A stretch of DNA of 64,000 nucleotides from the NCBI RefSeq assembly GCF_050725615.1, contig NZ_JBOHHU010000004.1:17096-81095 (forward strand). The letters are read 5' to 3'. Made by a program: the position numbers and the translations under genes. A model generated the notes under the pieces. The model had not been told where the DNA came from and did no database searches. It was given only the letters and a program-made list of their open reading frames with translations. Source of the DNA: Sphingopyxis sp. Lineage in GTDB: Bacteria > Pseudomonadota > Alphaproteobacteria > Sphingomonadales > Sphingomonadaceae. Of the stretch, positions 8,503 to 55,184 are shown one piece after another (the stretch's first letter is position 1; the number at the start of each line of letters is the position of its first letter).

Positions 8503-9666
8503 TCAACAGTCCCGGCGCAGCAGATCGGCCATGATTTCGGCCTGACGGTTCACCGACAGCCTGGCGAGCGCATAGGCTCGCGCCGCTTCATCGGCATATT
8601 GGCCCTTGTCGAGCAGGTCGCCGAGCAGCGTCGCCAGACCCTCGACATCGCCTTCGTCGAACAAATGCCCCTGCCCGCCCATCACTTCGGGGATCGCGCC
8701 CGACCGGCTGCCGACCATGGTGCGGCCGCACGCCATCACTTCCTGGATGACGCGGCCATATTGCTCCTTCCACTTGGGGGTGCTGAGCGACGGCAGCACG
8801 ACGATATCGGCGGCGTTCATATAGCGCGCCATGTCCTCATGCTTCGATTCGAAGAAGATGACGCGGTCCGACAGGCCGAGGCGTTCGATCTGCGCCTGGA
8901 GCTGCGCGGTATAGCCCGAGGCGCCGATGAAATCGTCGATGAGGAATTGCCAGGGGCGGTCGCGGATGCGGTCGAGCGCGTCGATCAGGATGTGGATGCC
9001 CTTTTCGGGGGTCTGGCGCCCGAAATAGGCAATCACCGGCCGGGTGAGGCCGAGTTCGGCACGAACGACCGCACGCTCGGCTTCGGGGAGCGGCTGGAAC
9101 AGGCGCGGGTCGAAACCGAGCGGGACCTGCGTCGCGGTGAGACCCATTTTTTCGATCAGCGCAGTGCCGTCCTGGCTGAGCGTCAGCACGCGGTCGACCT
9201 TGCGGCGCGCCGAGCGGCGAAGCCATGTCTTGACCAGCGCCGAGGCGATGCCGGCGGGGTTGCGCGTTTCGGCCGCCTTTTTGAGGTCGCTGCCGAGGCT
9301 TTGCGGCATATTCTCGGCGGTGAGCGACCAGAGCTTCGCGTTCGGCGCGACCTGTTTGGCCTGGCGCACCATCATGCTCGCGGGGTCGCTGTCGCAATAG
9401 ATGTGGGTCGGCTGGAAAGCGTCGACCACGGCCTGAACCCCCTGCAGCGTGTGCGTCCGCTGGTTGGTGCCGGTCAGGTCGAGCAACGTCAGGTCGTAAT
9501 TTTCGGGCGGGAAGTCGGGGGTGTCGCGCCATTGGCCGCCGACGAAATGGCGGCGTGGGACGACGAGGTGAACGGGGATGCCGAGCGCGCCGATCTCGCG
9601 GAACAGCGCGCGGTTCACCGGCTCGTGGCACGAGAGCGAAATGGCGAGGAGGCGCGGACCGGTCAC
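8503..9666 (-). CDS. Glycosyltransferase family 4
   Basis: GT-B motifs GRQTPEKG and WKEQYGRVIQEVMACG; GTG start overlaps the upstream TGA. Confidence 0.88.
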   Translation of the reverse strand: MTGPRLLAISLSCHEPVNRALFREIGALGIPVHLVVPRRHFVGGQWRDTPDFPPENYDLTLLDLTGTNQRTHTLQGVQAVVDAFQPTHIYCDSDPASMMVRQAKQVAPNAKLWSLTAENMPQSLGSDLKKAAETRNPAGIASALVKTWLRRSARRKVDRVLTLSQDGTALIEKMGLTATQVPLGFDPRLFQPLPEAERAVVRAELGLTRPVIAYFGRQTPEKGIHILIDALDRIRDRPWQFLIDDFIGASGYTAQLQAQIERLGLSDRVIFFESKHEDMARYMNAADIVVLPSLSTPKWKEQYGRVIQEVMACGRTMVGSRSGAIPEVMGGQGHLFDEGDVEGLATLLGDLLDKGQYADEAARAYALARLSVNRQAEIMADLLRRDC

Positions 9667-10580
9667 GCGGCGAAGGCGGCGATGGTACGGCGGGCTTCGT
9701 CGGCGATGCTCGCCGAAGGCGTCCAGCCGAGCGCGGCGAGGCGCGATATGTCGACCGTGAACGGGCTGCGGAAGGCGTCGGTGCCGTCGCCATAGGTGAT
9801 CGTCACGGGCTGCGGCGCGGCTGCGGCGATGCTCTCGGCGAGCGCCTGCATCGTGATCGCCTGCCCCGCGCCGAGGTTGAAGATGGTGTTCCAGCCATTT
9901 TCGGCGCGGAGCAGCCGGTCGACCGCCGCGATCGCGTCGCCGAACGGCAAGATATCACGATAGCTCTGTCCATCGTTGCGCAGGCTCATCGTACCGCTTT
10001 CGGCGACCTGGCGGCAGAGGTCGAGGAAGATCAGCCCCGCCTGTTCGCCCAGATCCCTGTGCGCGGGCGCGCCGACCATGTTGGTCGGGCGGAGGATCGC
10101 GATGCGGTCGGCGACGTCGCTGGCGGTGAGTTCGCTCTCGATCGCGAGATGCGTCCGGCCATAGGGATGGCCCGGCGCCTTGGGCATGTCCTCGTTGTAG
10201 GTCGCGGCGACAGCGCCACCATAGACATGGAAGGTCGAGAAATGGATCAGGCGCGCCGCCCTGCCCTCGCGCAGTGCGGCGAGGCACGCGCTGGCGGTGC
10301 TGCGGCCCTGCGCCAGCGCGGCGTCGGCGTCCTTGCCCGCCGCCTGCGCGCCCGGCATCGCGAGATTGACGATCGCGTCATAATCGCCACCCGGCAATAC
10401 CGCGTCGGTGCCGCTGTCGTAGCGAAAGGAGGCGATGCCGCGTTCCGCAAGCCATGCGGCGCGCGCGGGCGTGTCCGAGCGCACGGTAACCGCGACGTCC
10501 CAGTCATCGGCCAGCGCCTCGGCCAGCCGCGCCCCGAAATATCCGCTGCCGCCGACGAGCAGCAGCCGGCCATCAGCCAT
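9663..10580 (-). CDS. NAD-dependent epimerase/4-keto-reductase (SDR)
   Basis: GGSGYFG Rossmann motif, FSTFHVYG, YGRTH in place of YxxxK; start re-assigned to MADGRLLLVGG at 10580. Confidence 0.8.
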   Translation of the reverse strand: MADGRLLLVGGSGYFGARLAEALADDWDVAVTVRSDTPARAAWLAERGIASFRYDSGTDAVLPGGDYDAIVNLAMPGAQAAGKDADAALAQGRSTASACLAALREGRAARLIHFSTFHVYGGAVAATYNEDMPKAPGHPYGRTHLAIESELTASDVADRIAILRPTNMVGAPAHRDLGEQAGLIFLDLCRQVAESGTMSLRNDGQSYRDILPFGDAIAAVDRLLRAENGWNTIFNLGAGQAITMQALAESIAAAAPQPVTITYGDGTDAFRSPFTVDISRLAALGWTPSASIADEARRTIAAFAA

Positions 10581-11022
10581 GGCGGACGTCCCAGTTGTAA
10601 GGGATCTTGTCGGTGAACGGGTCCATGCGGTCGATCTCGTCGGCCGAATGGACGTGGGTGGTGCAGTTCGCGACGATGGCCGGATATTGGCCATAGCCCT
10701 TGAAGCCGTTCCACACGAAGGGCGGCACGGTGACGAGGCAATAATTGTCCTCGCCCATGAAGATTTCCTGGAGTTCGCCGCGCGTCGGCGAGCCTTCGCG
10801 GTCGTCGTAGAGGACAAATTTGATGCGGCCGTGGACGACGGCATAGTTCAGCGTCATTTCGCTGTGGATGTGCCAGGCCTTGATCGCGCCGGGCTGCACG
10901 CACGAGAAATAAATCTCGCCGAACCGGTCGAAATGCGGCGCGTCGCTGCGCAGCATGTGCATGATCTTGCCGCGTTCGTCCGGAATCTGGCGCAGCGGTG
11001 TAATCAGGACGCCGTCGATCAT
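10573..11022 (-). CDS. Cupin-fold NDP-4-keto-6-deoxyhexose 3(,5)-epimerase (RmlC-like)
   Basis: DERG, IKAWHIH, LVTVPPFVWNGF motifs; start MIDGVLITPL at 11022. Confidence 0.85.
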   Translation of the reverse strand: MIDGVLITPLRQIPDERGKIMHMLRSDAPHFDRFGEIYFSCVQPGAIKAWHIHSEMTLNYAVVHGRIKFVLYDDREGSPTRGELQEIFMGEDNYCLVTVPPFVWNGFKGYGQYPAIVANCTTHVHSADEIDRMDPFTDKIPYNWDVRHG

Positions 11023-11042
11023 CTTATTCCCCTTGGGTTGGT

Positions 11043-12170
11043 TCAGGCCGCCCAGGCGAGCGATTTCGCTCGCGCCTCGGCAACGAAGGTTTCGATATCG
11101 TGACGCGTCCGGTCGAGTGCGGGAGCCTGGTCGGCGACCACCGCCTTGTACCAGCCCGCAGTCAGCGCGACGCCGCCCGCGAAGTCGAGCGTCGGGGCCC
11201 AGCCGAGCTTGTGATAGGCCTTGTCGATCGACAGGCCGAGCAGCCCGGCTTCGTGGACCGCACCCGCTTCGGCCGCATTGACCCAGGTGCCGGGCCAGTG
11301 CTTGAGGAATTCGGTGACCAGCCGTTCGACCGAGCCATTGGCCTCGACCCACGGGCCGAAGTTGAACGCCTCGGTCACGTCGGTCGGCGATTTCACCCGC
11401 GCCGTGGTTGCGGCGCCGCCGAGCAGCGCACCGAGCCAGAGATAGCCGCTCAGCGATTCCAGTACATGCTGCCAGGGCCGCGTCGCGTGCGGATTACGCA
11501 GGCGGATCGCTTCACCCTTGGCAAGGCTGCGCACGCAGTCGGGGACGATGCGGTCGAGCGACCAGTCGCCGCCGCCGATGACATTGCCGGCGCGCACCGT
11601 CGCCATCTTCACCGGGCTGTCGGGCCCCGAGAAGAAACTGCGGCGATAGCTGTGCGCTACGATTTCGGCGGCGCCCTTCGATGCGCTGTAGGTGTCGTGG
11701 CCGCCCATCGGATCATCTTCGCGATAGCCCGACAGGACTTCGCGATTCTCGTAGCATTTGTCCGAGGTGACGCAGACGACCGCCGCCGGATGGCCGGCAC
11801 GGCGCAGCGCATCGAGCAGGTTGACGGTGCCCATGACGTTGGTCGCCATCGTTTCGACCGGATGATCGTAGGAGTAACGGACAAGCGACTGCGCCGCGAG
11901 GTGGAAGACATAGTCGGGCTTGTGCGCCGTCACGACGTCATAAAGCGCGTCGGCATCGCGCACGTCGCCCAGGATATGCGTCATCCGGTCGGCGAGGCCG
12001 AGGCTGTCGAAATGCGACGGGCCGTCGTCGACCTTGTGCGAGAAGCCGACGACCCTGGCGCCCAGCATCAGCAGCCATTCGGCCATCCACGAACCCTTGA
12101 AGCCCGTATGGCCGGTCAAGAGGACGGTCTTGCAGCGATAGGCGTCGCCGAACATGCTGCCGCTTACCAT
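11043..12170 (-). CDS. rfbG: CDP-glucose 4,6-dehydratase
   Basis: TGHTGFKGSW, HLAAQSLVR, TSDKCYEN, RAGNVIGGGDW, RPWQHVLE. Confidence 0.95.
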   Translation of the reverse strand: MVSGSMFGDAYRCKTVLLTGHTGFKGSWMAEWLLMLGARVVGFSHKVDDGPSHFDSLGLADRMTHILGDVRDADALYDVVTAHKPDYVFHLAAQSLVRYSYDHPVETMATNVMGTVNLLDALRRAGHPAAVVCVTSDKCYENREVLSGYREDDPMGGHDTYSASKGAAEIVAHSYRRSFFSGPDSPVKMATVRAGNVIGGGDWSLDRIVPDCVRSLAKGEAIRLRNPHATRPWQHVLESLSGYLWLGALLGGAATTARVKSPTDVTEAFNFGPWVEANGSVERLVTEFLKHWPGTWVNAAEAGAVHEAGLLGLSIDKAYHKLGWAPTLDFAGGVALTAGWYKAVVADQAPALDRTRHDIETFVAEARAKSLAWAA

Positions 12171-12949
12171 TTCTTCCAGGGCGCACGCCCTTCGGCCCAC
12201 AGTTCGTTGAGCAGCGAATATTCGCGCGGCGTGTCCATCGGCTGCCAGAAGCCATTATGTTCGTACATCATCAACTCGCGATCGGCGGCGAGGCGTTCCA
12301 TCGGTTCGCGTTCGAGGATGAGATCCTCGCGATCGTCGAGATAATCGTCGACGAAATTGCGGTTGAAGACGAAGAAACCGCCGTTGATATGGCCGCCCGA
12401 CACCTGCGGCTTTTCGTTGAAGCTGGCGACGACGCCGCCTTCGGTGCCGAGTTCGCCGAAGCGACCCGGGGGATAGACGCCGGTCAGCGTCGCGGTCTTG
12501 CCATGGCCCTTGTGGAAATCGACCAGCGCCGAAATATCGACGTCGCCGACGCCGTCGCCATAGGTGGCGCAGAAATGATCGACGCCGTCGAGATAGCGCG
12601 CGCCGCGACGGATACGCGCGCCGGTCATCGCATCCTCGCCGGTTTCGGCGAGCGTGACCTTCCAGTCCTCGGTCTGGTGCTTGTGGAACTGCAACCGGTC
12701 CTCGCCGCGCTTCGACAGGTCGACGGTGACGTCGGACGACTGGTTGGCGTAGTTGAGGAAGAAATCGCGGATGATGTCGCCCTTATAGCCCAGCAGCAGG
12801 ACGAAATCGGTGATGCCGTGCGCGGCATAGATTTTCATAATGTGCCAGACGATGGGTTTGTCGCCGATCGGCACCATCGGCTTGGGCAGGGTTTCGGAGA
12901 CTTCGCGGAGGCGGGTCCCGCGACCGCCGCAGAGAATCAGGGCTTTCAT
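12164..12949 (-). CDS. rfbF: Glucose-1-phosphate cytidylyltransferase
   Basis: LCGGRGTRL, PKPMV, TYGDG, HNGFWQPMDT. Confidence 0.95.
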   Translation of the reverse strand: MKALILCGGRGTRLREVSETLPKPMVPIGDKPIVWHIMKIYAAHGITDFVLLLGYKGDIIRDFFLNYANQSSDVTVDLSKRGEDRLQFHKHQTEDWKVTLAETGEDAMTGARIRRGARYLDGVDHFCATYGDGVGDVDISALVDFHKGHGKTATLTGVYPPGRFGELGTEGGVVASFNEKPQVSGGHINGGFFVFNRNFVDDYLDDREDLILEREPMERLAADRELMMYEHNGFWQPMDTPREYSLLNELWAEGRAPWKKW

Positions 12950-13016
12950 AGGGGCAAGCTCGTTCCGTTCTGAGGATCAGGATGCGGCGGAATCAATTGG
13001 GTTATCAAGCGCCCGC

Positions 13017-13045
13017 TCGGTAGCCGCAAAGCCAGGGCGCTGCAA
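13017..13045 (-). promoter_or_regulatory. Putative sigma70 promoter for the rfbF-rfbG module
   Basis: TTG(13045-13043)-N18-GCTACCGA(13024-13017) in the selO-rfbF gap. Confidence 0.5.
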
Positions 13046-13070
13046 CGCGCGTCGCGCCTCGATGGCCATT

Positions 13071-14534
13071 TCATGTGCCGCAGAAAGTCACATAAGGGGC
13101 CGTTTCGCGGGGGCCCGGCTGGGCGTAATCTGCTCGGTCGGCGCGCTCGGCATAAGGCGTCCGGACGACATCAAGCAGTGTCAGGAAAGGCGCGAGATCG
13201 CCCTGCTCGGCGGCCGCCAGCGCTTCCTCGACCTTGTGGTTGCGCGGGATATAGAGCGGGTTGACCGCGTCCATCGCCGCCGCCCGCTCAACGGGGTTGA
13301 TCGGCTCGCGTTCGAGTTGCGCCCACCATTGGGCGATCCACGGCGCCATGGCGTCGGGCGCCGGCAGCAACGCTTCGATGGCGGTGGCATCGCCGCGCAG
13401 CAATGTCGCGAGCGCCCGGAAAAACAGGGTGAAGTCGGGCCCGTTCTGTTCGAGCGCGTCGAACAATCCGTCGATCAGCCCGGCATCGCTCGAGTGCGGC
13501 GCGCCGAGGCCCAGTTTCTGTCGCATCGTGGCCAGCCAGATGGTCCGGAACTGCTCGACGACGTCGGCGACCAGCTTTTTCGCGACCTCGACATCGTCGG
13601 GGTTCACCGCGTGGATCGCCGGGAGCAGCGCTTCGGCAAAGCGCGCCATGTTCCAGTTCATAATCGCGGGCTGATTGCCATAGGCATAGCGGCCGTTGGC
13701 GTCGATCGAACTATAGACGCTGTTGACGGCAAACCGGTCCATGAAGGCGCAGGGACCATAGTCGATCGTTTCGCCGCTGACCGCGACATTGTCGGTGTTC
13801 ATCACGCCGTGGACGAAGCCCAGCCCCATCCATTTCGCGACCAGTACGCACTGGCGTTCGATCACCGCTGCCAGCAGGGCAAGATGCGGATTGGCGGCGC
13901 TGGCGAGGTCGGGAAAATGGCGGCGGATCGTATAGTCGGACAGCTGGACGACATGTTCGGCGCCGAGGTGAGCGGCGAAAAACTGGAAGGTGCCGACGCG
14001 GATATGGCTCGACGCGATCCGGGTGAGCACCGCGCCGGGATGGGCGCGTTCGCGCTGGACGCGGTCGCCGGTCGCCACCGCCGCGAGCGCGCGGGTGGTC
14101 GGCACCTGCATCGCCGCCATCGCTTCGGACACCAGAAATTCGCGCAGGACGGGGCCGATCGCCGCCTTGCCGTCGCCGTTTCGCGAGAAAGGCGTCGGAC
14201 CGGAGCCTTTCAACTGCACGTCGAAACGCTTGCCATCGGGTGCGACGATTTCGCCGAGCAACAGGGCGCGGCCGTCGCCGAGTTGCGACGAGAAATGGCC
14301 AAACTGATGTCCGGCATAAGCGAAAGCGAGCGGATTGGCGCCGCCCGGCAAGGCCTGGCCCGAAAAAAGCCGCGCGAGCGTGTCGTCGTCGACATCGGCG
14401 GTCGCCAGCCCGAGCGTTCCAGCGAGCGTCTGGTTGAAGACGAGCAGCTTTGGCGCCGAAGGCGGCGCGGCCTCGGCCGGCGCGTAAAAACCCTCCATCT
14501 CGCGGTGGAAGCTGTTGTCGAAGGCGATATCCAT
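13071..14534 (-). CDS. selO: Protein adenylyltransferase SelO (YdiU)
   Basis: YAGHQFG, QLGDGRA, QLKGSGPTPFSR.GDG, HGVMNTDN, IDYGP, C-terminal TFCGT. Confidence 0.95.
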   Translation of the reverse strand: MDIAFDNSFHREMEGFYAPAEAAPPSAPKLLVFNQTLAGTLGLATADVDDDTLARLFSGQALPGGANPLAFAYAGHQFGHFSSQLGDGRALLLGEIVAPDGKRFDVQLKGSGPTPFSRNGDGKAAIGPVLREFLVSEAMAAMQVPTTRALAAVATGDRVQRERAHPGAVLTRIASSHIRVGTFQFFAAHLGAEHVVQLSDYTIRRHFPDLASAANPHLALLAAVIERQCVLVAKWMGLGFVHGVMNTDNVAVSGETIDYGPCAFMDRFAVNSVYSSIDANGRYAYGNQPAIMNWNMARFAEALLPAIHAVNPDDVEVAKKLVADVVEQFRTIWLATMRQKLGLGAPHSSDAGLIDGLFDALEQNGPDFTLFFRALATLLRGDATAIEALLPAPDAMAPWIAQWWAQLEREPINPVERAAAMDAVNPLYIPRNHKVEEALAAAEQGDLAPFLTLLDVVRTPYAERADRADYAQPGPRETAPYVTFCGT

Positions 14535-14590
14535 GGCTCTGTTCCTCGCCCTTCTCTCTCGAACCTCGCCCGCCCGATTGCAAGCGCGCG

Positions 14591-15532
14591 TCAGGCGTGG
14601 TGCGCCAGGAACCAGTCGTAGGTCGCCGCAATGCCGTCGCGCAGGTCGACGGTCGGCGACCAGCCCATCGCGGCGAGCCTGGCGTTCGACATCAGCTTGC
14701 GCGGCGTGCCGTCGGGTTTTGTCGTGTCCAGCTCGATCTCGACATCAGCGCCGACCACCTCGGCGATGAGGCGCGCGAGGTCGATGATCGCGATGTCGGC
14801 GCCCGACCCGACATTGACATGGCCGGCGTCGGAGTAGGTCTTCATCAGGAAGACGCAGGCGTCGGCGCAATCGTCGACATGCAGGAATTCGCGCATCGGG
14901 GTGCCGCTGCCCCACAGCGTCATCCTTTTCGCGCCGCTCACCTTCGCTTCATGCGCCTTGCGGAGCAGCGCGGGCAGGACATGGCTCGACGCGAGGTCGA
15001 AATTGTCGCCGGGACCGTAGAGATTGGTCGGCATCGCCGAAATATAGTCGCGCCCATATTGGCGGCGATAGCTTTGCGCGAGCTTGATGCCCGCGATCTT
15101 GGCGATCGCATACCATTCGTTCGTCGCTTCGAGCGGCCCCGTAAGCAATGCCTCTTCGACGATCGGCTGCTCGGCATATTTGGGGTAGATGCACGACGAG
15201 CCGAGGAAACAGAGCTTGGCGACATCGGCGCGGTGCGCGGCATCGACGATATTGGTTTCGATGACGAGGTTCTGGTAGAGGAAATCGGCCGGAAAGCTGT
15301 CGTTGGCGAGGATGCCGCCGACTTTCGCCGCCGCCAGGAACACCGCGTCGGGTTTTTCCCGCGCGACCCATTGGCGCACCGCCGCCTGATCGAGCAGGTC
15401 GAGCGTGTCGCGCCCGGCGGTCAGGATTTCGCAATCCTCGCTCGCGAGCCGTCGCACCAGCGCGCTCCCCACCATGCCGCGGTGGCCCGCGACCCAGACG
15501 CGCTTGCCCGCGAGCGAAAAATCGTCAGCCAT
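14591..15532 (-). CDS. fcl: GDP-L-fucose synthase
   Basis: [40 protein letters not shown]. Confidence 0.95.
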
Positions 15533-16595
15533 GTGCCGGGTTCGTGCCGGCCTTGGCTTCAGCGAGGTCGGCGGCGACCATTTCGCGGCACAGCTCGCGC
15601 ACCGATGTTTCGTGACGCCAGCCGAGCTTCTGATGCGCCTTCGACGGGTCGCCGATCAGCAATTCGACTTCGGTCGGGCGGAAATAGCGCGGATCGACCT
15701 CGACCAGGCAGGTGCCGGTTTTGGTGCAATAGCCCTTTTCATCGACGCCTTCGCCCTTCCATTCGAGCGCGATGCCGACATCCTCGAACGCCCATTCGAC
15801 GAAATCGCGCACCGGGGTCGTCTCGCCGGTCGCGAGGACATAGTCGTCGGGTTCGTCCTGCTGCATCATCAGCCACATGCCGCGCACATATTCGCGGGCA
15901 TGGCCCCAGTCGCGCTTGGCGTCGAGGTTGCCGAGATAGAGCTTGTCCTGCTGGCCGAGGCTGATCGCGGCGGCGGCGCGGGTGATCTTGCGCGTGACGA
16001 AGGTCTCGCCGCGCAGCGGGCTTTCATGGTTGAACAATATGCCGTTCGAAGCATGCATGCCATAGGCTTCGCGGTAATTGACCACGATCCAATAGGCATA
16101 GAGCTTGGCCGCCGCATAAGGGCTGCGCGGATAGAAAGGCGTGGTTTCGCGCTGCGGCACTTCCTGGACGAGGCCGTAGAGTTCCGAGGTCGATGCCTGA
16201 TAGAAGCGGCAGGTCTTTTCCATGCCGAGGATACGCATCGCCTCGAGCAACCGCAGCGTGCCGATTGCGTCGCTGTTCGCGGTATATTCGGGGGTCTCGA
16301 AACTCACCTGCACATGGCTTTGCGCCGCGAGGTTGTAGATTTCGGTCGGCTTGGTTTCCTGGACGATGCGGATCAGGTTGGTGCTGTCGGTCAGGTCGCC
16401 ATAATGGAGGTGGAAGCGCGAATTTTCGACGTGCGGATCCTGATAGATATCCTCGATGCGGCTGGTGTTGAACGAGGAGGACCGGCGCTTGAGGCCGTGC
16501 ACGATATAGCCCTTTTCGAGCAGCAGCCGTGCGAGATAGGCGCCGTCCTGTCCGGTAATTCCGGTAACAAGAGCGATTTTTTCCTGTTCAGCCAA
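15525..16595 (-). CDS. gmd: GDP-mannose 4,6-dehydratase
   Basis: [35 protein letters not shown]; TTG start with GAGGAA RBS. Confidence 0.96.
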
Positions 16596-17791: not shown

Positions 17792-17823
17792 CGCCTGCCC
17801 CTCTCCCAAGGAACAGAATAGAA

Positions 17824-20567: not shown

Positions 20568-20673
20568 AGCGCCCTTCGGGTGCGGCACAGGTTTGATTTT
20601 GCGGTTTCCTTTGCCGGGCGGGCGGGCTAGTCCCTCGCAAGCGGCAGGCAGATAAAAAAGGGAATATGTTTCG

Positions 20674-21384: not shown

Positions 21385-21411
21385 GACCTGCAGGAAGTTC
21401 GAACTCGTTCC

Positions 21412-25775: not shown

Positions 25776-25804
25776 GCGTCCCGTCGCTATTTGGGGAACT
25801 ACGC

Positions 25805-26764: not shown

Positions 26765-26799
26765 GCCATGGCCGGGAGCGATCCGGCGGCGAGACGCGC

Positions 26800-46993: not shown

Positions 46994-46997
46994 GCCG

Positions 46998-48125
46998 ATG
47001 CGCGCAAGCTGCGACCTGTTGGGAGCCCCGCTCAGGATATTGATGATTTCGCCGCAGCCCTGGACCGGGCTGCAGGTATCGAAGCATCATTATGCCCGCG
47101 AACTCGCAGCGCTCGGCCATCATGTCTTTTTCGTCAACCCGCCGGGCGGCAGCGACCGCGTCCGCCTGTCGCCGAGCGACCATCCGGCGATCACGCTGGT
47201 CGATCACCCCCGTATGCCGCTCGCCCGCGCCAAATATCGCGCGCGCTGGCTGTTCATCGCGGCCGCGCGCTCTCGCGCCAGGGCGCTTGCCCGCGCGATC
47301 GGGCCGTTCGACTTGCTGTGGGATTTCGACAATGCGCGGCAGTTCGCCGATCATCGGCCTTTTCGCGCCCCGCTCTCGATCCTGCATGTCGTCGACATGC
47401 TCGATCCGGGCGACATCATGCATCGCGGCGCCGACCTGATCTTGGGCGTCGACGCATCGCTGATCGCCGAGATCGCGCTATCGCCCGCGCCGCGCCACGT
47501 CGTCGGCCATGGCCTGTCGCCGCTGTTCGCCGCGGCGGCGCGGAGCCGCCTCGCATCGCCGCGCACGCGCGTCGCCGACGCGCCGGTCATCATCGGCTTC
47601 ATCGGCAACCTTGCCCAGCCGGCGATGGATCGCGCCCGTGTCGCGGCGCTCGTCGCCGCGCATCCCGCGTGCTGCTTTCGCTTCATCGGCCCCGTTGCGG
47701 GGGAAACCCCGGAAATCCGGGCCTGGGCCGACAGGCTGATCGCGCAGCCGAACGTCGAGATGGCCGGCCTGTTGACCGGCGATGCGTTGATCGCGGCGAC
47801 CGGCGACGTCGATATCTGGCTGCTGCCCTATGATGTCGCGCGCGATCGCAATCGCGGGGTCAATTCGCACAAATTGCTCGAATATTTCGCGCTCGGCGGC
47901 GAAGTGGTGAGCAGCCCGATCGCGGCGCAGGCCGACGCGCCGGGCATATTCATGGCGCCGCGCGACGATCCGGACGCCATCGCGGGGCAACTCGACGCCG
48001 CCATTGCGGCGGTCCGCGAAGGCCGGGATACAGGAGCCCGCGCGCGCGCCGACCTCGCTTTGGCCAACAGCTACCGCGCCAATCTCGATCGCATCGCCGC
48101 TTATCTGAAGGACAGCACGACATGA
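46998..48125 (+). CDS. Glycosyltransferase (GT-B)
   Basis: SKHHYA, FIGNL, NSHKLLEYFALG. Confidence 0.78.
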   Translation: MRASCDLLGAPLRILMISPQPWTGLQVSKHHYARELAALGHHVFFVNPPGGSDRVRLSPSDHPAITLVDHPRMPLARAKYRARWLFIAAARSRARALARAIGPFDLLWDFDNARQFADHRPFRAPLSILHVVDMLDPGDIMHRGADLILGVDASLIAEIALSPAPRHVVGHGLSPLFAAAARSRLASPRTRVADAPVIIGFIGNLAQPAMDRARVAALVAAHPACCFRFIGPVAGETPEIRAWADRLIAQPNVEMAGLLTGDALIAATGDVDIWLLPYDVARDRNRGVNSHKLLEYFALGGEVVSSPIAAQADAPGIFMAPRDDPDAIAGQLDAAIAAVREGRDTGARARADLALANSYRANLDRIAAYLKDSTT

Positions 48126-48988
48126 GCATGGAGATCAGCGCGAACAGCCGGCTGGCCAACCGCATCCTGCGCCGGCTCGGCCAATTCGCCCGGCTCAATC
48201 GCGAGGTCGAGGCGAGCGTCGACGGCCGCCCGGTCGCCATACCCGTCTCCGCCGGGTTGATGGCCGAACTGACCGAGCCGTGGATGCTCGCCCTGCTACG
48301 CCGGTTGATGGGCATGGCGCCGGGCGCCTTCGTCGATGTCGGGGTCAATCTCGGCCAGACGCTGATCAAGACGAAGACGATCGACCCGGCGCGCCGCTAT
48401 GTCGGTTTCGAGCCCAATCCGGTGTGCGTCCATTATGTCGAGGAACTGGTCGCGGCGAACGACTGGCGCGATTGCCGCGTGGTGCCCGCCGGGCTCGGCC
48501 TTAAGAGCGGTATCGTGACGCTCGAACTCTACCACGGCCGCAGCGGCGATTCGGCCGCGTCGATCGTCGAGGGGTTTCGTCCGGGCGAGGCGATCACCTT
48601 TCGCAAGACCGTCGCGATCCTAGGCGCCGACGACCTGCCCGACGACCTGCTCACCGCGCCGGTCGGCCTGATCAAGATCGATGTCGAGGGCGCCGAAGCC
48701 GACGTCATCGACGCCCTGGCGCCCGTCATCGCGCGCGATCGTCCGCTGGTGTCGATGGAGATCCTGCCCTGCTACGACAGCGGGCGCACCGACCGCATCG
48801 CACGCCAGGCGCGGATCGAGGCGCGGTTCGCCGACCTCGATTATCGTATCCTGCGCGTGCTGCACGAAGGGCGCGGCGGCTCCTATGAGCTGACACCGAT
48901 CGACAGCATCGGCATCCATGGCGACCTGGTGCTGTGCGAATATGTGATCTGCCCCGCCGAACGCGTCGACGCATGCCTCGCCGGCTGA
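48122..48988 (+). CDS. FkbM family methyltransferase
   Basis: FVDVGVNLGQ, GFEPN, KIDVEGAE. Confidence 0.88.
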   Translation: MSMEISANSRLANRILRRLGQFARLNREVEASVDGRPVAIPVSAGLMAELTEPWMLALLRRLMGMAPGAFVDVGVNLGQTLIKTKTIDPARRYVGFEPNPVCVHYVEELVAANDWRDCRVVPAGLGLKSGIVTLELYHGRSGDSAASIVEGFRPGEAITFRKTVAILGADDLPDDLLTAPVGLIKIDVEGAEADVIDALAPVIARDRPLVSMEILPCYDSGRTDRIARQARIEARFADLDYRILRVLHEGRGGSYELTPIDSIGIHGDLVLCEYVICPAERVDACLAG

Positions 48989-48995
48989 CCGGTAG

Positions 48996-49790
48996 TCAGA
49001 GCGTCTTAGGGTAGAGACCCAGCTTGCGCTTGATCCGCCGCTCGAGCAGCTCGCGCCGCCCGAGGTTGAACAGCGTGATCGGCCGATCGAACATCGTCCG
49101 CTCGGACAAATGGGCGCCGCGAAGCCGCGGACTGGTCACCAGCATCGCACGATAGTGTTCGGCGACGGCGGGGCGCGCGACGAACAATTTATATTGCGTG
49201 ATCAGAAAGGGTTGCAGCCGGTCCTTCATCTCGGTGAGGAGATGGATCGCGGCCACCGACACGTCGGGCCAGCCGACGCCGAAAAAATCATGGACGATCA
49301 TCACGCCATCGTCGGCGAGAACGGCTTCGGCGAGGCGCATGTCGTGGATCACATTCCGGTAAGCGTGGCCGCCATCGACGCTGAACAGCCGGACCTCGCC
49401 GATCCTTGCCCGCAGCGTTTCGGCGGTGAGCGTCAACGAATCGACCGTCCACACCTCCGGCTCATCGAGCGCGATGCCCAGCCTGGCCCGATTGTCGAAA
49501 AAGGCCGTGTCCCGGCCCGCGTGGATGCCGGTGTTCAGACCGTCGTCCTGAAACAGGTCGATCGCCAGCGCGCGTTCGCCCGCCTGGCGCAGCAGCGCGA
49601 GGATAAAGAACAGCTTGCCGTGATGCACGCCGATTTCGGCGAGATTGCCCGCGATCCCCTGTTCGGCCTGCCAGCGGCCGACCGCGTCGATCGCCGCCGC
49701 CTCGACAGGGCCGAAATAGCCGGCGACGGCCTCGATCTGACGGTCGATATAGCGGTCCAGCGCGGCGAAATTGGCGGCCAAAGAGTCCAC
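48996..49790 (-). CDS. Class I SAM-dependent methyltransferase (Methyltransf_24-like)
   Basis: EIGVHHGK, IDLF, SVDGGHAY, GVMIVHDF. Confidence 0.8.
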   Translation of the reverse strand: MDSLAANFAALDRYIDRQIEAVAGYFGPVEAAAIDAVGRWQAEQGIAGNLAEIGVHHGKLFFILALLRQAGERALAIDLFQDDGLNTGIHAGRDTAFFDNRARLGIALDEPEVWTVDSLTLTAETLRARIGEVRLFSVDGGHAYRNVIHDMRLAEAVLADDGVMIVHDFFGVGWPDVSVAAIHLLTEMKDRLQPFLITQYKLFVARPAVAEHYRAMLVTSPRLRGAHLSERTMFDRPITLFNLGRRELLERRIKRKLGLYPKTL

Positions 49791-49814
49791 TCCGTCGAAT
49801 AAAAGGGCGTGGCC

Positions 49815-51779
49815 TCAGCCCGCCAGCGGCGCCTGGACGTCGGCGCTGGCCTGATTGACCTCTTCGGGGGGGCGAAACTCGGGGACAAGGTCGTGGAGCA
49901 GGTCAAGGCATTCCTCTGCCCGGCCATGGTCCATCGCCTCGCGCAGGGTGTCGAGCTTGGCCGACAAATCGCTCCATTCGAGCATCGCCTCGCGCGCCTG
50001 CATGATGCGGCTGTGGCTCGTCGGCTTGGGGTCGTCGCCGATCAGCAGCTCTTCATAGAGTTTCTCGCCCTGGCGCAGTCCGACCTCGGCAATCTCGATG
50101 TCGCCATCGGGATGATGCTCGTCACGCACCGTCAGGCCCGACAGATTGATCATCGTACGCGCGAGTTCGATGATCCGCACCGGTTTGCCCATATCGAGCA
50201 CGAACACCTCGCCGCCCTTCGCCATCGCGCCCGCCTGGATGACGAGCTGTGCCGCCTCGGGGATGGTCATAAAGAAGCGCGTGACGTCGCGGTGCGTGAC
50301 CGTCACCGGACCGCCATTCTTGATCTGCTCGCGGAACAAGGGGACGACCGACCCGCTCGACCCCAGCACATTGCCGAAGCGCACCATCGCGAAAATCGTC
50401 TTGCTGCCGCGGCTTGCGAGACCCTGCAGGACCAGTTCGCACACGCGTTTCGACGCACCCATGACATTGGTCGGGCGCACCGCCTTGTCGGTGCTGATCA
50501 GCACGAAATTGGTGACCCCGACCCGGTCGGCTTCGGTCGCCATGAACAAGGTGCCGCAAACATTGTTGCCGATGCCGGCGATCGGGTTCGCTTCGACCAG
50601 CGGCACATGCTTGTAGGCGGCGGCGTGGAAGATCGTATCGGGCCGCCAGCGCGCGAGCAGGCGCCGGACGGTGGACTGGTCGGTGACGTTGCCGAGTTCC
50701 TCGATCAGTTCGGGCTGCTGTCCGTCGGGCAGTTCGGCGATCGCCGCCTGCAATTCCTGGCCGATCGCATAAAGGCCATATTCGGATGATTCGACCAGGA
50801 TCAGCTTGTCGGGACGCATCGTCACGATCTGACGGGTCAGCTCGCTGCCGATCGATCCGCCGGCGCCGCTGACCATCACCGTCTTGCCGACGATCGTCCG
50901 TCCGAGCAGCAACTGGTTCGGCGGCACCGGATCGCGCCCGAGCAAATCCTCGATCTGCACGTCGCGCAGGTCGCTGACCGATACCTGTTCGTCGATGATC
51001 TGCCGCATATCGGGCAGCATGCGGACGCGAATGGGCCAGTCTTCGAGTGATTTCATCACCCGGCGGCGCTTCGAGCGCGTGACATGCGGCAGCGCGAGCA
51101 GCACGTCGGTGACGCCATAGCTGTCGACCAGATAGGGAAGTTTCGGGCGCGAATAGATCGGCACGCCGTCGATGATCTCGCCCTCGATCTTGCGATCGTC
51201 GTCGATGAAGCCGACGAGGCGCATCGCGGGATCGCTGCGCAGCGCCATCGCCAGCTGCTGCCCGGCCTCGCCCGCGCCGTAAATCAGCGCGATCGACTGT
51301 TGCTGGATATCGCGGCGCTTGAGCAGGTCGACGACGGCATAGCGCGCGACGATGCGGGTCATCGCCAGGAAAAGCAGGAAGATGATCGGCTGGATCACCG
51401 CCACGGTGCGCGGGACCCCGTGCATGCCGACGATACCGAAAATGACGATCATCGGGATCGCATAGAGCATGACCGAATAGGCCAGCCCGACCATCGTCCG
51501 GCCGCCCGAAAAGCGCAGAATCGAGCTGTAGGTGCCGCGCATCAGGAAGATCGGAAGCCAGCTCGACAGGGCGATCACCGATGCGAGGCCGACCGCCGAT
51601 TCGAAAATCCGCCATTGTCCGAGCCGCAACGAAAAGGCGACAAGCACCGCCGCGACGCAGAGCAAGGCATCGGCGACGATCAGGATCGCGCGCTTCTCGC
51701 TACGCCCCAGCGCGACGAGCGACGCCAGAACGGCCAGGATCCGCTCCTCGACCACTCCCCAGATCCGCCCCAAGATCAT
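49815..51779 (-). CDS. UDP-GlcNAc 4,6-dehydratase, WbpM/CapD/PglF family
   Basis: Four N-terminal TMs, IYGAGEAG, GAGGSIGSE, HAAAYKHVP, STDKAVRP, RFGNVLGSSGSV; start at 51779. Confidence 0.92.
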   Translation of the reverse strand: MILGRIWGVVEERILAVLASLVALGRSEKRAILIVADALLCVAAVLVAFSLRLGQWRIFESAVGLASVIALSSWLPIFLMRGTYSSILRFSGGRTMVGLAYSVMLYAIPMIVIFGIVGMHGVPRTVAVIQPIIFLLFLAMTRIVARYAVVDLLKRRDIQQQSIALIYGAGEAGQQLAMALRSDPAMRLVGFIDDDRKIEGEIIDGVPIYSRPKLPYLVDSYGVTDVLLALPHVTRSKRRRVMKSLEDWPIRVRMLPDMRQIIDEQVSVSDLRDVQIEDLLGRDPVPPNQLLLGRTIVGKTVMVSGAGGSIGSELTRQIVTMRPDKLILVESSEYGLYAIGQELQAAIAELPDGQQPELIEELGNVTDQSTVRRLLARWRPDTIFHAAAYKHVPLVEANPIAGIGNNVCGTLFMATEADRVGVTNFVLISTDKAVRPTNVMGASKRVCELVLQGLASRGSKTIFAMVRFGNVLGSSGSVVPLFREQIKNGGPVTVTHRDVTRFFMTIPEAAQLVIQAGAMAKGGEVFVLDMGKPVRIIELARTMINLSGLTVRDEHHPDGDIEIAEVGLRQGEKLYEELLIGDDPKPTSHSRIMQAREAMLEWSDLSAKLDTLREAMDHGRAEECLDLLHDLVPEFRPPEEVNQASADVQAPLAG

Positions 51780-52561
51780 GCGGAGACGCTCTCCCCGGTC
51801 TTGAGGAAGCGCTGGCTTTGCCCTTCGAGCACCAGCGCGGTGAGCTTGCCGCTGCGATAGGCGCCGGTATCGATGCCGATGCGGTTCGCGCGGCAATCGA
51901 CATCGGGGGTGATCGTGTGGCCGTGAACGACCATCACGCCATGATCCCGGTCGTCGTCGAGAAACTCGTCGCGAATCCAGCGCAGGTCGTGAACCTGCTG
52001 CTGGTCGAGCGGGCGTCCAGGAAAAATCCCTGCATGAACAAAGAGATAGTCGCCAATCTGCACATAATCCACCATCGAGCGGAACAAACGAACATGCGAA
52101 GCCGGTATGCCGGCGTGAATTTTGGCGACCAGAGCCTCTCTATCCCCGAAAATGGCCGCTTCTTCAAGTCCGTAGCTTTCGAGCGCCTGTTCGCCGCCAT
52201 AACGGATCCAGCCGGGCAGTTGCGAATGGGCCCCGTCGAGAATCTCGAGCAGCGCCTCTTCATGGTTGCCCATCAGCAGATGCATCTCGTCGATGCCCGC
52301 CGGTTTGGTCAACAAACGCTCGACGACCTGTGCCGATTGCGGGCCGCGATCGATGAGATCGCCGAGCATCACGAGATGGACGGTGTCGGCGGGATTACGC
52401 GCGCCCTCATCGGCGATCCGCGCGATCAGCGCGTCGAGCAGGTCGAGCCGGCCGTGAACATCGCCGATCGCATAGACGCGCGTGCCCGGCGGCACTTGTG
52501 GCCAATCTTCCTGGGCGGGTTCGGGGGCGGCCTCCTTGCGGCCAAAAAGTCTTTTCAACAT
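51776..52561 (-). CDS. Metallophosphoesterase, PPP-family protein phosphatase-like
   Basis: GDVHG, GDLIDRG, GNHE, HAG, HGHT, IDTG motifs; its TGA overlaps the ATG of the wbpM-like gene. Confidence 0.88.
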   Translation of the reverse strand: MLKRLFGRKEAAPEPAQEDWPQVPPGTRVYAIGDVHGRLDLLDALIARIADEGARNPADTVHLVMLGDLIDRGPQSAQVVERLLTKPAGIDEMHLLMGNHEEALLEILDGAHSQLPGWIRYGGEQALESYGLEEAAIFGDREALVAKIHAGIPASHVRLFRSMVDYVQIGDYLFVHAGIFPGRPLDQQQVHDLRWIRDEFLDDDRDHGVMVVHGHTITPDVDCRANRIGIDTGAYRSGKLTALVLEGQSQRFLKTGESVSA

Positions 52562-52783
52562 GGTCTTACCGATTGATCCTGACGCCCAGCCCCATCGCCG
52601 GTTCACCGCTGCGGCGCGCCGACAACGCGCGAAGGGGCGATAGGGATGCCTATGCCCCGCCATTTACCCGCGATTGGCGCAATGACAAGGATCACAGCCG
52701 GGTCATTTTGATGCGCGGTTAAGCGGATAACAACCAAAATCTCCTAGGCGTGGGCGCATGAACCCCCGATATATGAGCGCGCG

Positions 52784-53899
52784 ATGAAAGTGATGACGGT
52801 GTTCGGGACGCGTCCCGAAGCGATCAAGATGTTCCCCGTGGTGCACGCTTTGCGGCGCCAGACGGGGCTCGACGTGCGGGTGTGCGTCACCGCGCAGCAT
52901 CGCGAAATGCTCGATCAGGTGCTCGACATCGCGCGCATCACCCCCGACATCGACCTTGACGTCATGCAGGCGAACCAGACGCTCGACGGGCTGCTGGCGC
53001 GGCTCGTGGTGGGGCTCGGGGAGACCTTCGATGCCGAAAAGCCCGATCGCATCCTCGTCCATGGCGACACGCTGACGACGATGGCGGCGACCTTATCCGC
53101 ATATTTTCGCAAGATCCCCGTCGGCCATGTCGAGGCGGGCCTGCGCAGCGGCAATATCTATCACCCTTGGCCCGAGGAAGTGAACCGCAAGGTCACCGGC
53201 GCGGTCGCCGACCTGCATTTCGCACCGACGGAGACGGCGGCGGCCGCGCTGCGCGCCGAAAATGTCCCGGCGGCCAATATCCACATCACCGGCAATACGG
53301 TGATCGACGCGCTGCTCGCGACCAAGGCGCGCATCGACGAGGAGCCCGCGCTCGCCGCCGGGCTCGATCCGCTGCTCGCGCGCTTTGCGGGCCAGCGCAT
53401 CGTTGCGGTCACCTCGCACCGCCGCGAGAATTTCGGTGACGGCATGAAGGCGATTGCCGACGCGATCGCCGCGATCGCGGCGCGGCCCGACGTCGCGGTC
53501 ATCTTTCCGGTCCATCCCAACCCGCATGTCCGCGCCGCAATGGAGCCCATTCTCGGCGCCCTGGCCAATGTCGCGCTGATCGATCCGCTCGACTATCCGC
53601 ATTTCGTGCGGCTGCTCGCATCGAGCGAATTGGTGCTCACCGACAGCGGCGGGGTGCAGGAAGAAGCGCCCTCGCTCGGCAAGCCGGTGCTGGTGATGCG
53701 CGAGACGACCGAGCGGCCCGAAGGCATCGAAGCGGGCACCGCGCGGCTCGTCGGCACCAACAAGGACCGCATCGTTTCCGAAATTTTCAGCCTTTTGGAC
53801 GATGAAGGGGCCTATGCCGCCATGGCGCGCGCCCATAATCCCTTTGGCGACGGCACGGCAGGCACCCAGATTGCGGAGATTGTCGCGCGTGCCCGTTGA
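52784..53899 (+). CDS. wecB: UDP-N-acetylglucosamine 2-epimerase (non-hydrolysing)
   Basis: GTRPEAIK, HGDT, HVEAGLRS, PEE.NR, TDSGGVQEE. Confidence 0.95.
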   Translation: MKVMTVFGTRPEAIKMFPVVHALRRQTGLDVRVCVTAQHREMLDQVLDIARITPDIDLDVMQANQTLDGLLARLVVGLGETFDAEKPDRILVHGDTLTTMAATLSAYFRKIPVGHVEAGLRSGNIYHPWPEEVNRKVTGAVADLHFAPTETAAAALRAENVPAANIHITGNTVIDALLATKARIDEEPALAAGLDPLLARFAGQRIVAVTSHRRENFGDGMKAIADAIAAIAARPDVAVIFPVHPNPHVRAAMEPILGALANVALIDPLDYPHFVRLLASSELVLTDSGGVQEEAPSLGKPVLVMRETTERPEGIEAGTARLVGTNKDRIVSEIFSLLDDEGAYAAMARAHNPFGDGTAGTQIAEIVARAR

Positions 53900-55184
53900 T
53901 ATCGAACAGAAAGTCACCGTCGTCGGCCTCGGCTATATCGGCCTGCCGACCGCCGCGCTGATCGCGCGCTCGGGCTGCAAGGTCACCGGCATCGACGTCA
54001 GCGCGCACGTCGTCGAGACCGTCAACAACGGCAAGGTGCATATCGAGGAAGTCGACCTCGACGGCCTGGTCCAGGGCGTCGTGTCGCGCGGCGCGCTCGT
54101 CGCCTCGACGACAATGGTCGCCGCCGACACCTTCGTCATCGCGGTGCCGACCCCACACGACGCGGAACATCGCCCCGACATCTCGTATGTGCTCGACGCC
54201 GCGCGCTCGATCGCCAAGGTGCTCGTGCCGGGCAATCTGGTAATCCTCGAATCGACCTCGCCGGTCGGGACGACCGAAAAGGTCGCCGAGTTGCTCGCCG
54301 CCGAGCGCCCAGACCTCAAGGTTCCCGGCCGCTGCGCCGGAACCCCCGACATCTTCGTCGCTTATTGCCCCGAGCGCGTCTTGCCCGGCCGCATCCTGAT
54401 CGAGCTGGTCGACAACGACCGCTGCATCGGCGGCATCACCCCGCGCTGCGCGCGCCGCGCGATGACCTTCTACCGCCAGTTCGTGCGCGGCGCCTGTGTG
54501 ACCACCACCGCGCGCGCCGCCGAAATGGTCAAGCTGGTCGAGAACAGCTACCGCGACGTCAACATCGCCTTCGCGAATGAATTGTCGATGATCGCCGACA
54601 AGATGGGGGTCGATGTCTGGGACGTGATCCGCCTCGCCAACCTCCACCCGCGCGTGAACATCCTGCAGCCGGGCCCCGGCGTCGGCGGCCATTGCATCGC
54701 GGTCGACCCCTGGTTCCTCGTCCATGGCGCGCCTGACGAGAGCCGGCTGATCCGCACCGCGCGCGAGGTTAACCTGTCGAAGACCGCGCATGTCATCGCC
54801 GCGACCGCCGCACTCGTCGCGAGCCATCCGCAGGCGAAGGTCGGCGTGCTCGGGCTCGCTTTCAAACCCAATATCGACGATTTCCGCGAAAGCCCCGCAG
54901 TCGAAGTCGCCGCCGCGCTCGCGCGCCAGTTCGGCAAGCGGATTCAGGTCGTCGAGCCCTTCGCCAAGGGCTTGCCGATGGAATTCGCCGGCAGCGGCGC
55001 CGAGCTCGTCGAACTCGACGATGCACTCGCCGATTGCGACGTGATGATCGTGCTGGTCGACCATGACGTGTTCAAATCGGTCCCGCTCGAGGAACGCAGC
55101 GGCAAGATCGTCTATGACACGCGCGGCCTGTGGCCCGATCAGGGCTGGCCGGCGGCCGCGAGCGCACCGCGCGCGGTGGCGTAA
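53889..55184 (+). CDS. wecC: UDP-N-acetyl-D-mannosamine dehydrogenase
   Basis: GLGYIGLPTA, ESTSPVGTT, PERVLPG, GGHCIAVDPWF; GTG start at 53889. Confidence 0.93.
   Translation: MPVDIEQKVTVVGLGYIGLPTAALIARSGCKVTGIDVSAHVVETVNNGKVHIEEVDLDGLVQGVVSRGALVASTTMVAADTFVIAVPTPHDAEHRPDISYVLDAARSIAKVLVPGNLVILESTSPVGTTEKVAELLAAERPDLKVPGRCAGTPDIFVAYCPERVLPGRILIELVDNDRCIGGITPRCARRAMTFYRQFVRGACVTTTARAAEMVKLVENSYRDVNIAFANELSMIADKMGVDVWDVIRLANLHPRVNILQPGPGVGGHCIAVDPWFLVHGAPDESRLIRTAREVNLSKTAHVIAATAALVASHPQAKVGVLGLAFKPNIDDFRESPAVEVAAALARQFGKRIQVVEPFAKGLPMEFAGSGAELVELDDALADCDVMIVLVDHDVFKSVPLEERSGKIVYDTRGLWPDQGWPAAASAPRAVA

Follow-up and report, generated by a model that had tools for sequence, protein, structure and literature searches.

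Gene content of the tamA–hslVU locus

The DNA analysed here (the window) is a stretch of 64,000 nucleotides from a Sphingopyxis sp. genome (contig NZ_JBOHHU010000004.1), in which positions 8503–55184, lying between tamA and hslVU, hold a large polysaccharide locus. By open reading frame (ORF) calling combined with frame-specific G+C content at third codon positions (GC3), and with families taken from Pfam, NCBIfam and PDB sequence searches, 43 intact genes were resolved and identified there. They form four orientation blocks (minus, 8503–16595; plus, 16796–48988; minus, 48996–52561; plus, 52784–55184), and the block limits recovered by GC3 frame analysis and ORF calling bear out those claimed in an earlier note on this DNA. 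Among the 30 plus-strand genes no gap exceeds 106 bp and 12 junctions overlap by 1–4 bp, a packing like that of a single operon, which argues for one glycan as the product. The window has 66% G+C; GC3 is 0.78–0.88 for 42 of these 43 genes and 0.84–0.87 for the flanking housekeeping genes, the sole lower value (0.72) being that of the metallophosphoesterase. The locus is therefore compositionally native, and with this one gene excepted recent foreign acquisition was rejected. An ORF at 39732–40406 was also rejected as lying in the wrong frame, the true gene there being a second left-handed β-helix (LbH) acetyltransferase (39820–40410). Promoter and terminator scans gave counts no better than chance and were uninformative.

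The earlier note had listed seven glycosyltransferases (GTs), one WbpL-type initiator, one Wzx flippase and a Wza/Wzc pair, and all of these are recovered with Pfam and NCBIfam. Its enzymes for GDP-fucose, a CDP-6-deoxyhexose, UDP-xylose, UDP-N-acetylmannosaminuronate (UDP-ManNAcA), a diacetamido-uronate and N-acetylfucosamine or N-acetylquinovosamine (FucNAc/QuiNAc) likewise have family and PDB matches, and each of its five tailoring classes (amidino, amide, acyl, methyl and sulfate) is represented. As to the UDP-galacturonate (UDP-GalA) that it named, uronate pathway enzymes are present but the identity of the sugar is less certain: since the dehydrogenase at 17824 is of the UDP-N-acetylglucosamine (UDP-GlcNAc) type and the neighbouring epimerase is uronate 4-epimerase-like, the uronate may be GalA or N-acetylgalactosaminuronate (GalNAcA). 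Its gene list also needs correcting for a second GDP-mannose 4,6-dehydratase at 30069–31067, which it did not list, and for the presence of two Wzy-like membrane proteins.

The export and membrane proteins are given below, where 'frame' denotes genes that persist whatever the remaining content ('cargo') of the site.

19161–20567, plus: PF04932 (Wzy_C) membrane protein with a WaaL fold, ligase or polymerase; frame gene
20674–21384, plus: short Wza-type outer-membrane polysaccharide export (OPX) lipoprotein, 236 aa (PF02563, 81 bits; PF10531; lipobox LLAGC)
21412–23634, plus: Wzc, polysaccharide co-polymerase (PCP) and bacterial tyrosine (BY) kinase (PF02706, PF13807; TIGR01007, 145 bits, exceeding the cut-off)
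23591–24883, plus: 430 aa protein matching no Pfam or NCBIfam family, one N-terminal transmembrane (TM) segment; fourth cassette gene
31076–32479, plus: polytopic membrane protein (~10 TM segments) outside any Pfam family, candidate Wzy polymerase; cargo-specific
42296–43609, plus: Wzx flippase of the multidrug/oligosaccharidyl-lipid/polysaccharide (MOP) superfamily (PF13440, 83 bits; NF007773)

Besides the lipobox, Wza has a PES domain, a single SLBB domain and a short hydrophobic tail. E. coli Wza is far longer than 236 aa; the short form was also seen in other genera (237–238 aa). Wzc is a PCP-2a BY-kinase with a Walker A motif (GEGKST) and a C-terminal tail bearing seven tyrosines.

The genes assigned to sugar precursors, several of them encoding short-chain dehydrogenases/reductases (SDRs), are as follows.

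9663–10580, minus (refined start): SDR reductase, candidate CDP-4-keto-6-deoxyhexose 4-reductase (PF01370, PF04321)
10573–11022, minus: RmlC-like cupin epimerase (PF00908; 139 bits to PDB 3ejk, 'dTDP sugar isomerase')
11043–12170, minus: CDP-glucose 4,6-dehydratase (TIGR02622, 437 bits, exceeding the cut-off)
12164–12949, minus: glucose-1-phosphate cytidylyltransferase (TIGR02623, 338 bits, exceeding the cut-off)
14591–15532, minus: GDP-L-fucose synthase, Fcl (NF047922, 532 bits, exceeding the NCBIfam equivalog cut-off)
15525–16595, minus: GDP-mannose 4,6-dehydratase, Gmd (PF16363, 531 bits)
16796–17791, plus: NDP-hexuronate 4-epimerase-like SDR, for UDP-glucuronate (UDP-GlcA) or UDP-N-acetylglucosaminuronate (UDP-GlcNAcA) (391 bits to PDB 5u4q)
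17824–19092, plus: TviB/WbpA-like UDP-N-acetylhexosamine 6-dehydrogenase (NF011729, 397 bits, below the cut-off of 592; TIGR03026, 380 bits)
25805–26764, plus: UDP-glucuronate decarboxylase, UXS (420 bits to human UXS1), in a strain-specific 1 kb insertion
30069–31067, plus: second GDP-mannose 4,6-dehydratase, gmd2, type I allele (283 bits to GMD 2z1m)
34358–35320, plus: SDR, candidate UDP-4-keto-6-deoxy-GlcNAc 4-reductase with the WbpV/WbpK/WreQ role (PF01370, PF04321), ATGA-coupled to wbpL
36383–37444, plus: WbpB/WlbA UDP-GlcNAcA 3-dehydrogenase (609 and 561 bits to PDB 3q2i and 3q2k)
37441–38007, plus: WbpD/WlbB 3-N-acetyltransferase (274 bits to PDB 3mqg)
38004–39119, plus: WbpE 3-aminotransferase (431 bits to Pseudomonas aeruginosa WbpE 3nyu)
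49815–51779, minus: WbpM-type membrane UDP-GlcNAc 4,6-dehydratase with N-terminal TM segments (PF02719, 380 bits)
52784–53899, plus: UDP-GlcNAc 2-epimerase, WecB (TIGR00236, 472 bits, exceeding the cut-off)
53889–55184, plus: UDP-ManNAc dehydrogenase, WecC (NF008286, 559 bits, exceeding the cut-off)

From these matches the assignment of WlbA, WlbB and WbpE as a trio for a diacetamido-uronate is very strongly supported, and both the gluco and the manno configuration of this sugar are possible, because the WecB orthologue is the only 2-epimerase in the genome. The SDR at 16796–17791 comes closest to uronate 4-epimerases (142 bits to the Bacillus cereus UDP-GlcA 4-epimerase 6zl6, 113 bits to WbpP). 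For 30069–31067 a reading as Rmd was rejected, the match to Rmd 2pk3 (94 bits) falling far short of that to GMD.

The remaining genes encode transferases, tailoring enzymes and two further proteins.

8503–9666, minus: GT4 glycosyltransferase (PF13692/PF00534), 87–94% identical in all loci of the family described below and absent from other cargo types
26800–27924, plus: GT4 glycosyltransferase, allele unique to this strain (PF13439/PF13579)
27921–28973, plus: Glyco_trans_1_2 glycosyltransferase, allele unique to this strain (PF13524, 93 bits)
28970–30064, plus: GT4 glycosyltransferase, type I allele (PF00534)
32476–33570, plus: GT4 glycosyltransferase (PF13692/PF00534)
33585–34358, plus: GT2 glycosyltransferase (PF00535)
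46998–48125, plus: GT4-like glycosyltransferase (PF13692, 27.8 bits, barely over the cut-off)
35317–36303, plus: WbpL/WecA-family polyprenyl-phosphate N-acetylhexosamine-1-phosphate transferase, the initiator (PF00953, 89 bits; nine hydrophobic segments)
24915–25775, plus: FkbM methyltransferase 1 (PF05050)
48122–48988, plus: FkbM methyltransferase 2 (PF05050)
48996–49790, minus: Methyltransf_24 class I methyltransferase (PF13578)
39131–39823, plus: LbH acyltransferase 1 (PF00132)
39820–40410, plus: LbH acyltransferase 2 (PF00132), ATGA-coupled to acyltransferase 1
40416–42242, plus: AsnB-type glutamine amidotransferase, for uronamide formation in a WbpS-like role (TIGR01536, 376 bits, exceeding the cut-off)
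43606–44214, plus: HisH-like glutaminase of the acetamidino cassette (TIGR01855, 178 bits)
44218–45048, plus: sulfotransferase dependent on 3'-phosphoadenosine 5'-phosphosulfate (PAPS) (PF00685, Sulfotransfer_1; 89 bits to 3rnl, 60 bits to heparan sulfate 3-O-sulfotransferase)
45049–45825, plus: HisF2/WbuZ-like cyclase subunit (NF038364, 300.6 bits against a cut-off of 310; TIGR03572, 248 bits)
45836–46993, plus: WbuX N-acetyl sugar amidotransferase (TIGR03573, 261 bits against a cut-off of 203)
13071–14534, minus: SelO protein adenylyltransferase, housekeeping passenger (PF02696, 365 bits)
51776–52561, minus: metallophosphoesterase, frame gene (PF00149), 45–52% identical in species with other cargo

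The seven GTs are classed as five clear GT4 enzymes, one Glyco_trans_1_2 and one GT2, the 46998 gene being a weak GT4. The sulfotransferase shows both PAPS-binding motifs (MKCGTTSL and RDPIERYRS) and has orthologues of 89–91% identity in Sphingopyxis sp. HIX and in a Sphingopyxis metagenome-assembled genome, which places the host in that genus. Housekeeping hisH and hisF are located elsewhere, on contig C71, and no close paralogues of the locus genes were found in the rest of the genome, which supplies an adenosine 5'-phosphosulfate kinase (for PAPS), a Ugd-like dehydrogenase (for UDP-GlcA) and a ManC-like gene. Within the locus selO is a passenger and not a glycan gene, and the metallophosphoesterase is a putative passenger. 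An exact look-up of one protein of the window gave no record.

Frame, cargo and allelic variation

TamA and HslU were located in 40 relatives, and eight tamA–hslU intervals were compared. Ranging in length from 5 kb to about 50 kb, the interval is a genus-wide polysaccharide hot spot, with tamAB–selO on one side. A synteny comparison between tamA and hslV, as advocated in the earlier note, did separate a conserved frame from variable cargo: selO beside tamA, the run of PF04932 protein, Wza, Wzc and the 430 aa protein, wbpM, the phosphoesterase, and wecB–wecC beside hslV stay constant across cargo types, and every GT, the initiator and the flippase lie in the cargo. Since the cargo types have no GT in common, the frame cannot make a glycan by itself. 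The smallest site, of 5 kb and near-empty, was seen in one small-genome Sphingopyxis (G011), where the order is tamA, selO, a wecB-like gene, an SDR epimerase and hslV, and the export cassette is missing.

The cassette of PF04932 protein, Wza, Wzc and a fourth protein of about 400–430 aa (window 19161–24883) recurs in the same order in Allopontixanthobacter sediminis and Sphingomonas soli (10001–15619 in L048, 10001–15757 in L049), where it is followed by a flippase of its own and a second, cargo-specific Wzy-like protein. Of five Sphingopyxis species with other cargo, three have a homologue of the fourth protein beside wzc (23–27% identity, E<1e-10), and homologues of 25–26% identity occupy the equivalent position in the two other genera. 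Directly 5' of the cassette, Sphingomonas soli has a NusG/RfaH-like gene (PF02357; L049 9297–9878), which could encode an operon-specific antiterminator; none was found in the window.

In the window selO is co-directional with the fucose and CDP-sugar modules and stands between them. It adjoins tamA directly in species with other cargo, so that the CDP module looks inserted between tamA and selO, an arrangement of this module and its GT that is confined to the present locus family. The GT4 at 8503, which travels with the module, is on that ground a likely 6-deoxyhexosyltransferase.

The whole 47 kb arrangement is collinear in seven other species-level genomes (78–88% nucleotide identity). An eight-protein concatenated query over the genus, scoring two candidates per genome and thus reporting markers rather than a full presence/absence matrix, adds two more species by their marker genes, bringing the locus family to 10 of 136 genomes. 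Within it the centre, at 25.8–31.0 kb, is hypervariable. UXS is a clean insertion of about 1 kb (window 25776–26799) missing at that junction in all seven collinear relatives; its homologues occur in 28 other Sphingopyxis species at 70–81% identity (the nearest 80–81%), sometimes within the hot spot and sometimes adjoining a gmd2 homologue. The two following GTs diverge from alleles that resemble one another more closely: the 26800 GT is 61–66% identical to those of the relatives, which are mutually 71–93% identical, and the corresponding values for the 27921 GT are 46–50% and 68–94%. The next slots are dimorphic, holding either a GT4 and gmd2 (type I) or another GT4 and an Acyl_transf_3 gene (type II), and the type I GT4 at 28970 is 89–93% identical in two relatives (G087 and G099) and only about 40% in the others.

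Further along, the order hisH–sulfotransferase–hisF is kept in five of the eight family loci. The other three (G018, G065 and G099) read asnB–hisH–wzx–extra gene of about 2 kb–sulfotransferase–hisF (in G018, for example, over 33.6–37.6 kb of the concatenated interval) and carry a different wzx allele of 43–50% identity. The assembly from modules that had been suggested earlier is thus seen in the insertion of the CDP module and of UXS, in the allelic and dimorphic GT slots and in the rearrangement of wzx, hisH and the sulfotransferase gene. Judged from sequence, the variation within the family is classic serotype-like modular evolution, and such a natural series of UXS insertion and swapped GT alleles could tie genes to sugars once one structure has been solved.

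Proposed pathway and alternative products

We consider it fairly likely, given this gene content, that the locus is the main Wzx/Wzy-dependent, Wza/Wzc-exported cluster for a capsule-type heteropolysaccharide in a Sphingopyxis lacking lipopolysaccharide (LPS). LpxC (PF03331) is absent from the 99.99%-complete genome, and control genomes, including those of E. coli and Caulobacter, do give matches. Since the genome has no LpxC, the product is not an LPS O-antigen, a candidate that we rejected for want of the acceptor made by the Lpx pathway. The missing LpxC is consistent with what is known of sphingomonads, in which glycosphingolipids take the place of LPS (PMC13721041).

In the pathway that we propose, WbpM and the adjacent SDR would provide UDP-QuiNAc or UDP-FucNAc, from which WbpL would load the sugar onto undecaprenyl phosphate, and the seven GTs (five or six retaining GT4-type enzymes and one inverting GT2) would extend the chain. 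Predicted donors are a 2,3-diacetamido-2,3-dideoxyhexuronate (from the TviB/WbpA-like dehydrogenase, WbpB, WbpE and WbpD), ManNAcA (WecB/WecC), L-fucose (Gmd/Fcl), a CDP-activated 6-deoxyhexose, GalA or GalNAcA and, in this strain only, xylose from UXS fed by Ugd encoded elsewhere in the genome. WbuX, HisH and HisF would convert an N-acetyl to an acetamidino group, with the diacetamido-uronate rather than FucNAc as the probable substrate, the AsnB-type enzyme would amidate a uronate, and two LbH acetyltransferases, three methyltransferases and one PAPS sulfotransferase may further decorate the unit. The single Wzx would then flip it, the cargo-specific 31076 membrane protein would polymerize it, and Wzc and Wza would export the polymer. 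The sequence itself shows which genes are present, that they are intact, their synteny and the division into frame and cargo; from the gene set we infer the assignment of donors to GTs, the single repeat unit, the order of the steps and the role of the polymerase. The overall picture is a prediction from annotation and involves no new mechanism.

Both Wzy-like proteins bear on the last steps. A search of 5.8 billion proteins gave just 16 homologues of the 31076 protein, each of them from Sphingopyxis where the source is named; the protein has no Pfam match, and gives a confident AlphaFold2 model (pLDDT 82) with no significant PDB fold match. To have few homologues and to match neither a family nor a solved fold, despite the confident model, is what one would expect of a Wzy specific to its repeat unit. 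For the PF04932 protein at 19161, by contrast, more than 448 homologues are spread across sphingomonads; PDB sequence searches with it gave no matches, and a fold search with its AlphaFold2 model (pLDDT 84) gave WaaL (7tpg; E 5e-7, TM-scores 0.52/0.59) as the sole significant hit. That fold does not settle its function, because PF04932 also includes polymerases and PglL-type transferases, yet a conserved enzyme facing many cargo chemistries does fit a ligase-like role.

The presence of two such polytopic proteins would suit a locus that makes two glycans sharing Wza/Wzc, one polymerized by 31076 and the other by 19161, each from its own subset of GTs and precursors. The seven to eight precursor pathways, the four orientation blocks and a CDP module set apart, with its own GT, by selO are all compatible with this, and the annotated polymerase of Sphingomonas sp. 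LM7 promonan, required for exopolysaccharide (EPS), is itself a PF04932 protein (PMC11340318). However, initiator and Wzx each occur only once in the locus, the only polyisoprenyl-phosphate hexose-1-phosphate transferase (PHPT) of the genome is on another contig, the frame holds no conserved GT, and the modules stay together in each of the family loci examined, and hence we regard two glycans as rather unlikely. One complex glycan seems to us reasonably probable, because there is one initiator and one Wzx, the frame is free of GTs and all modules are inherited together in at least eight species.

Several observations weigh against this proposal of one capsule-type polymer. Eight transferases are not proof of eight sugars in one unit, gmd2 has no explanation in the pathway, and no dedicated WbpI-type 2-epimerase accompanies the diacetamido-uronate genes, leaving the WecB orthologue to serve as the only one. 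Among the 43 genes no cognate Wzb (low-molecular-weight protein tyrosine phosphatase) or PHP phosphatase was found, only the PF00149 metallophosphoesterase. The candidate polymerase matches no family and no solved fold, and the other, conserved Wzy-like protein, modelled with a WaaL fold, could be a ligase or a second polymerase. Finally, other contigs carry another EPS system (PHPT on C97, flippase on C68, wza on C33). Within that second system wza is found with an AsnB-like gene on C33 (12–26 kb), a strong MOP flippase lies at 1.5–2.4 kb of C68, and on C97 (9–12 kb) the PHPT has a ManC-like gene adjoining.

What becomes of the capsule-type polymer after polymerization may depend on the 19161 protein. 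Were it a ligase, it might move the polymer from undecaprenyl diphosphate to a glycosphingolipid, giving an O-antigen-like layer on a cell devoid of LPS. The absence of LpxC, the solitary structural match to WaaL, the known tolerance of WaaL-type enzymes for varied donors and the conservation of the cassette in several genera irrespective of cargo all point this way, as do the more than 448 homologues of the protein, compared with 16 for 31076; but PF04932 also contains true polymerases, so that the fold does not tell the two roles apart, the protein is only 33–36% identical between genera, there is no known acceptor and the literature searched yielded no glycolipid of this kind, making this outcome quite improbable. 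In its general form, that LPS-less sphingomonads pass variable cargo polymers through a conserved cassette whose WaaL-fold protein would join them to an anchor other than lipid A, for instance a glycosphingolipid, we hold the idea to be speculative and unlikely. If true, it would amount to a serotype-variable 'O-antigen on sphingolipid', with a polymer that is here sulfated and amidinated. It is highly improbable that 19161 is instead a PglL/PilO-type O-oligosaccharyltransferase placing part of the locus output on proteins: PglL and PilO do belong to the Wzy_C family and LPS, the usual WaaL acceptor, is missing from this bacterium, but the tight linkage of the gene to wza–wzc in three genera points to polymer export, and neither a pilin gene nor a known acceptor gene is found in its vicinity.

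Comparison with known systems

The closest studied analogue, by gene content, is 'Cluster B' of Sphingomonas sp. LM7 (Goetsch et al., J Bacteriol 2024; PMC11340318), spanning BXU08_RS19155 to RS19360 with about 48 kb and more than 40 ORFs, which directs a cell-associated polysaccharide: deletion of its wzy gave denser cells, and its structure is unsolved. Transposon hits in LM7 fell in genes for a sugar dehydrogenase, an AsnB-like protein, an aminotransferase, WxcM, MviM, WbuX, HisF2, HisH, GT4s, Wzy and Wzc (PMC11340318). Compared by annotation with the gene classes in Table 1 of that paper, both loci are sphingomonad, wzx/wzy-dependent and of like size (about 48 and 47 kb), with two Wzy-like genes and Wzc, and they share an NDP-sugar dehydrogenase, a DegT aminotransferase, a WxcM/LbH N-acetyltransferase, an MviM/GFO dehydrogenase, WbuX with HisF2 and HisH, an AsnB-like enzyme and GT4s. 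They differ in genus, and the LM7 table is without sulfotransferase, CDP-sugar, GDP-fucose or UXS genes.

The exceptional complexity that had been proposed for this locus is thus overstated, given collinear versions in about 10 Sphingopyxis species and the similar locus in LM7; it is a strain-specific version of a known kind of system, set in an interesting comparative frame. A near-identical locus with a solved glycan had been named as evidence that would overturn the earlier view; near-identical loci do exist, and no solved structure was found in the literature. For Sphingopyxis, neither a glycan structure nor a glycan gene cluster was found in the literature searched. Sphingomonad surface glycans other than glycosphingolipids are little studied, and the analyses presented here map a genus-wide hot spot and separate its export/attachment frame from its cargo. 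Few bacterial glycans combine sulfate, acetamidino, amide, methyl and acetyl groups as is predicted here, and a polymer so decorated could matter for resistance to phages or grazers or for association with cyanobacterial blooms, one relative being the microcystin degrader Sphingopyxis sp. YF1.

The segment at 36–48 kb resembles in its chemistry the P. aeruginosa O5 wbp and Bordetella wlb systems, with orthologues of WbpB/WlbA, WbpD/WlbB and WbpE and the same WbpM plus WbpL initiation with a 6-deoxy-N-acetylhexosamine; its order wzx–hisH–hisF–amidotransferase–GT4 also resembles the PAO1 order. Unlike those systems, the host of the window has no lipid A and export is by Wza/Wzc instead of Wzz and WaaL ligation onto core; the window alone has the additional fucose, CDP-sugar, ManNAcA, xylose, sulfate and methyl modules, and it has no dedicated WbpI.

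Likeness to E. coli group 1 capsules and colanic acid lies in the OPX lipoprotein with its PES domain, the PCP-2a BY-kinase with Walker motifs and tyrosine-rich tail, and the Wzx/Wzy chemistry, whereas the window differs in the length of Wza (236 aa, one SLBB domain), in having no Wzb and in its extra WaaL-fold and 430 aa proteins. A sphingan (gellan/welan) cluster was rejected, as the 43 genes include no dTDP-rhamnose genes, WbaP-type PHPT (SpsB) or ABC transporter. With the WbuXYZ cassette of the E. coli O145 FucNAm type the window shares a WbuX that exceeds its NCBIfam cut-off, together with partners like HisH and HisF2, and departs from it in placing a sulfotransferase gene between hisH and hisF.

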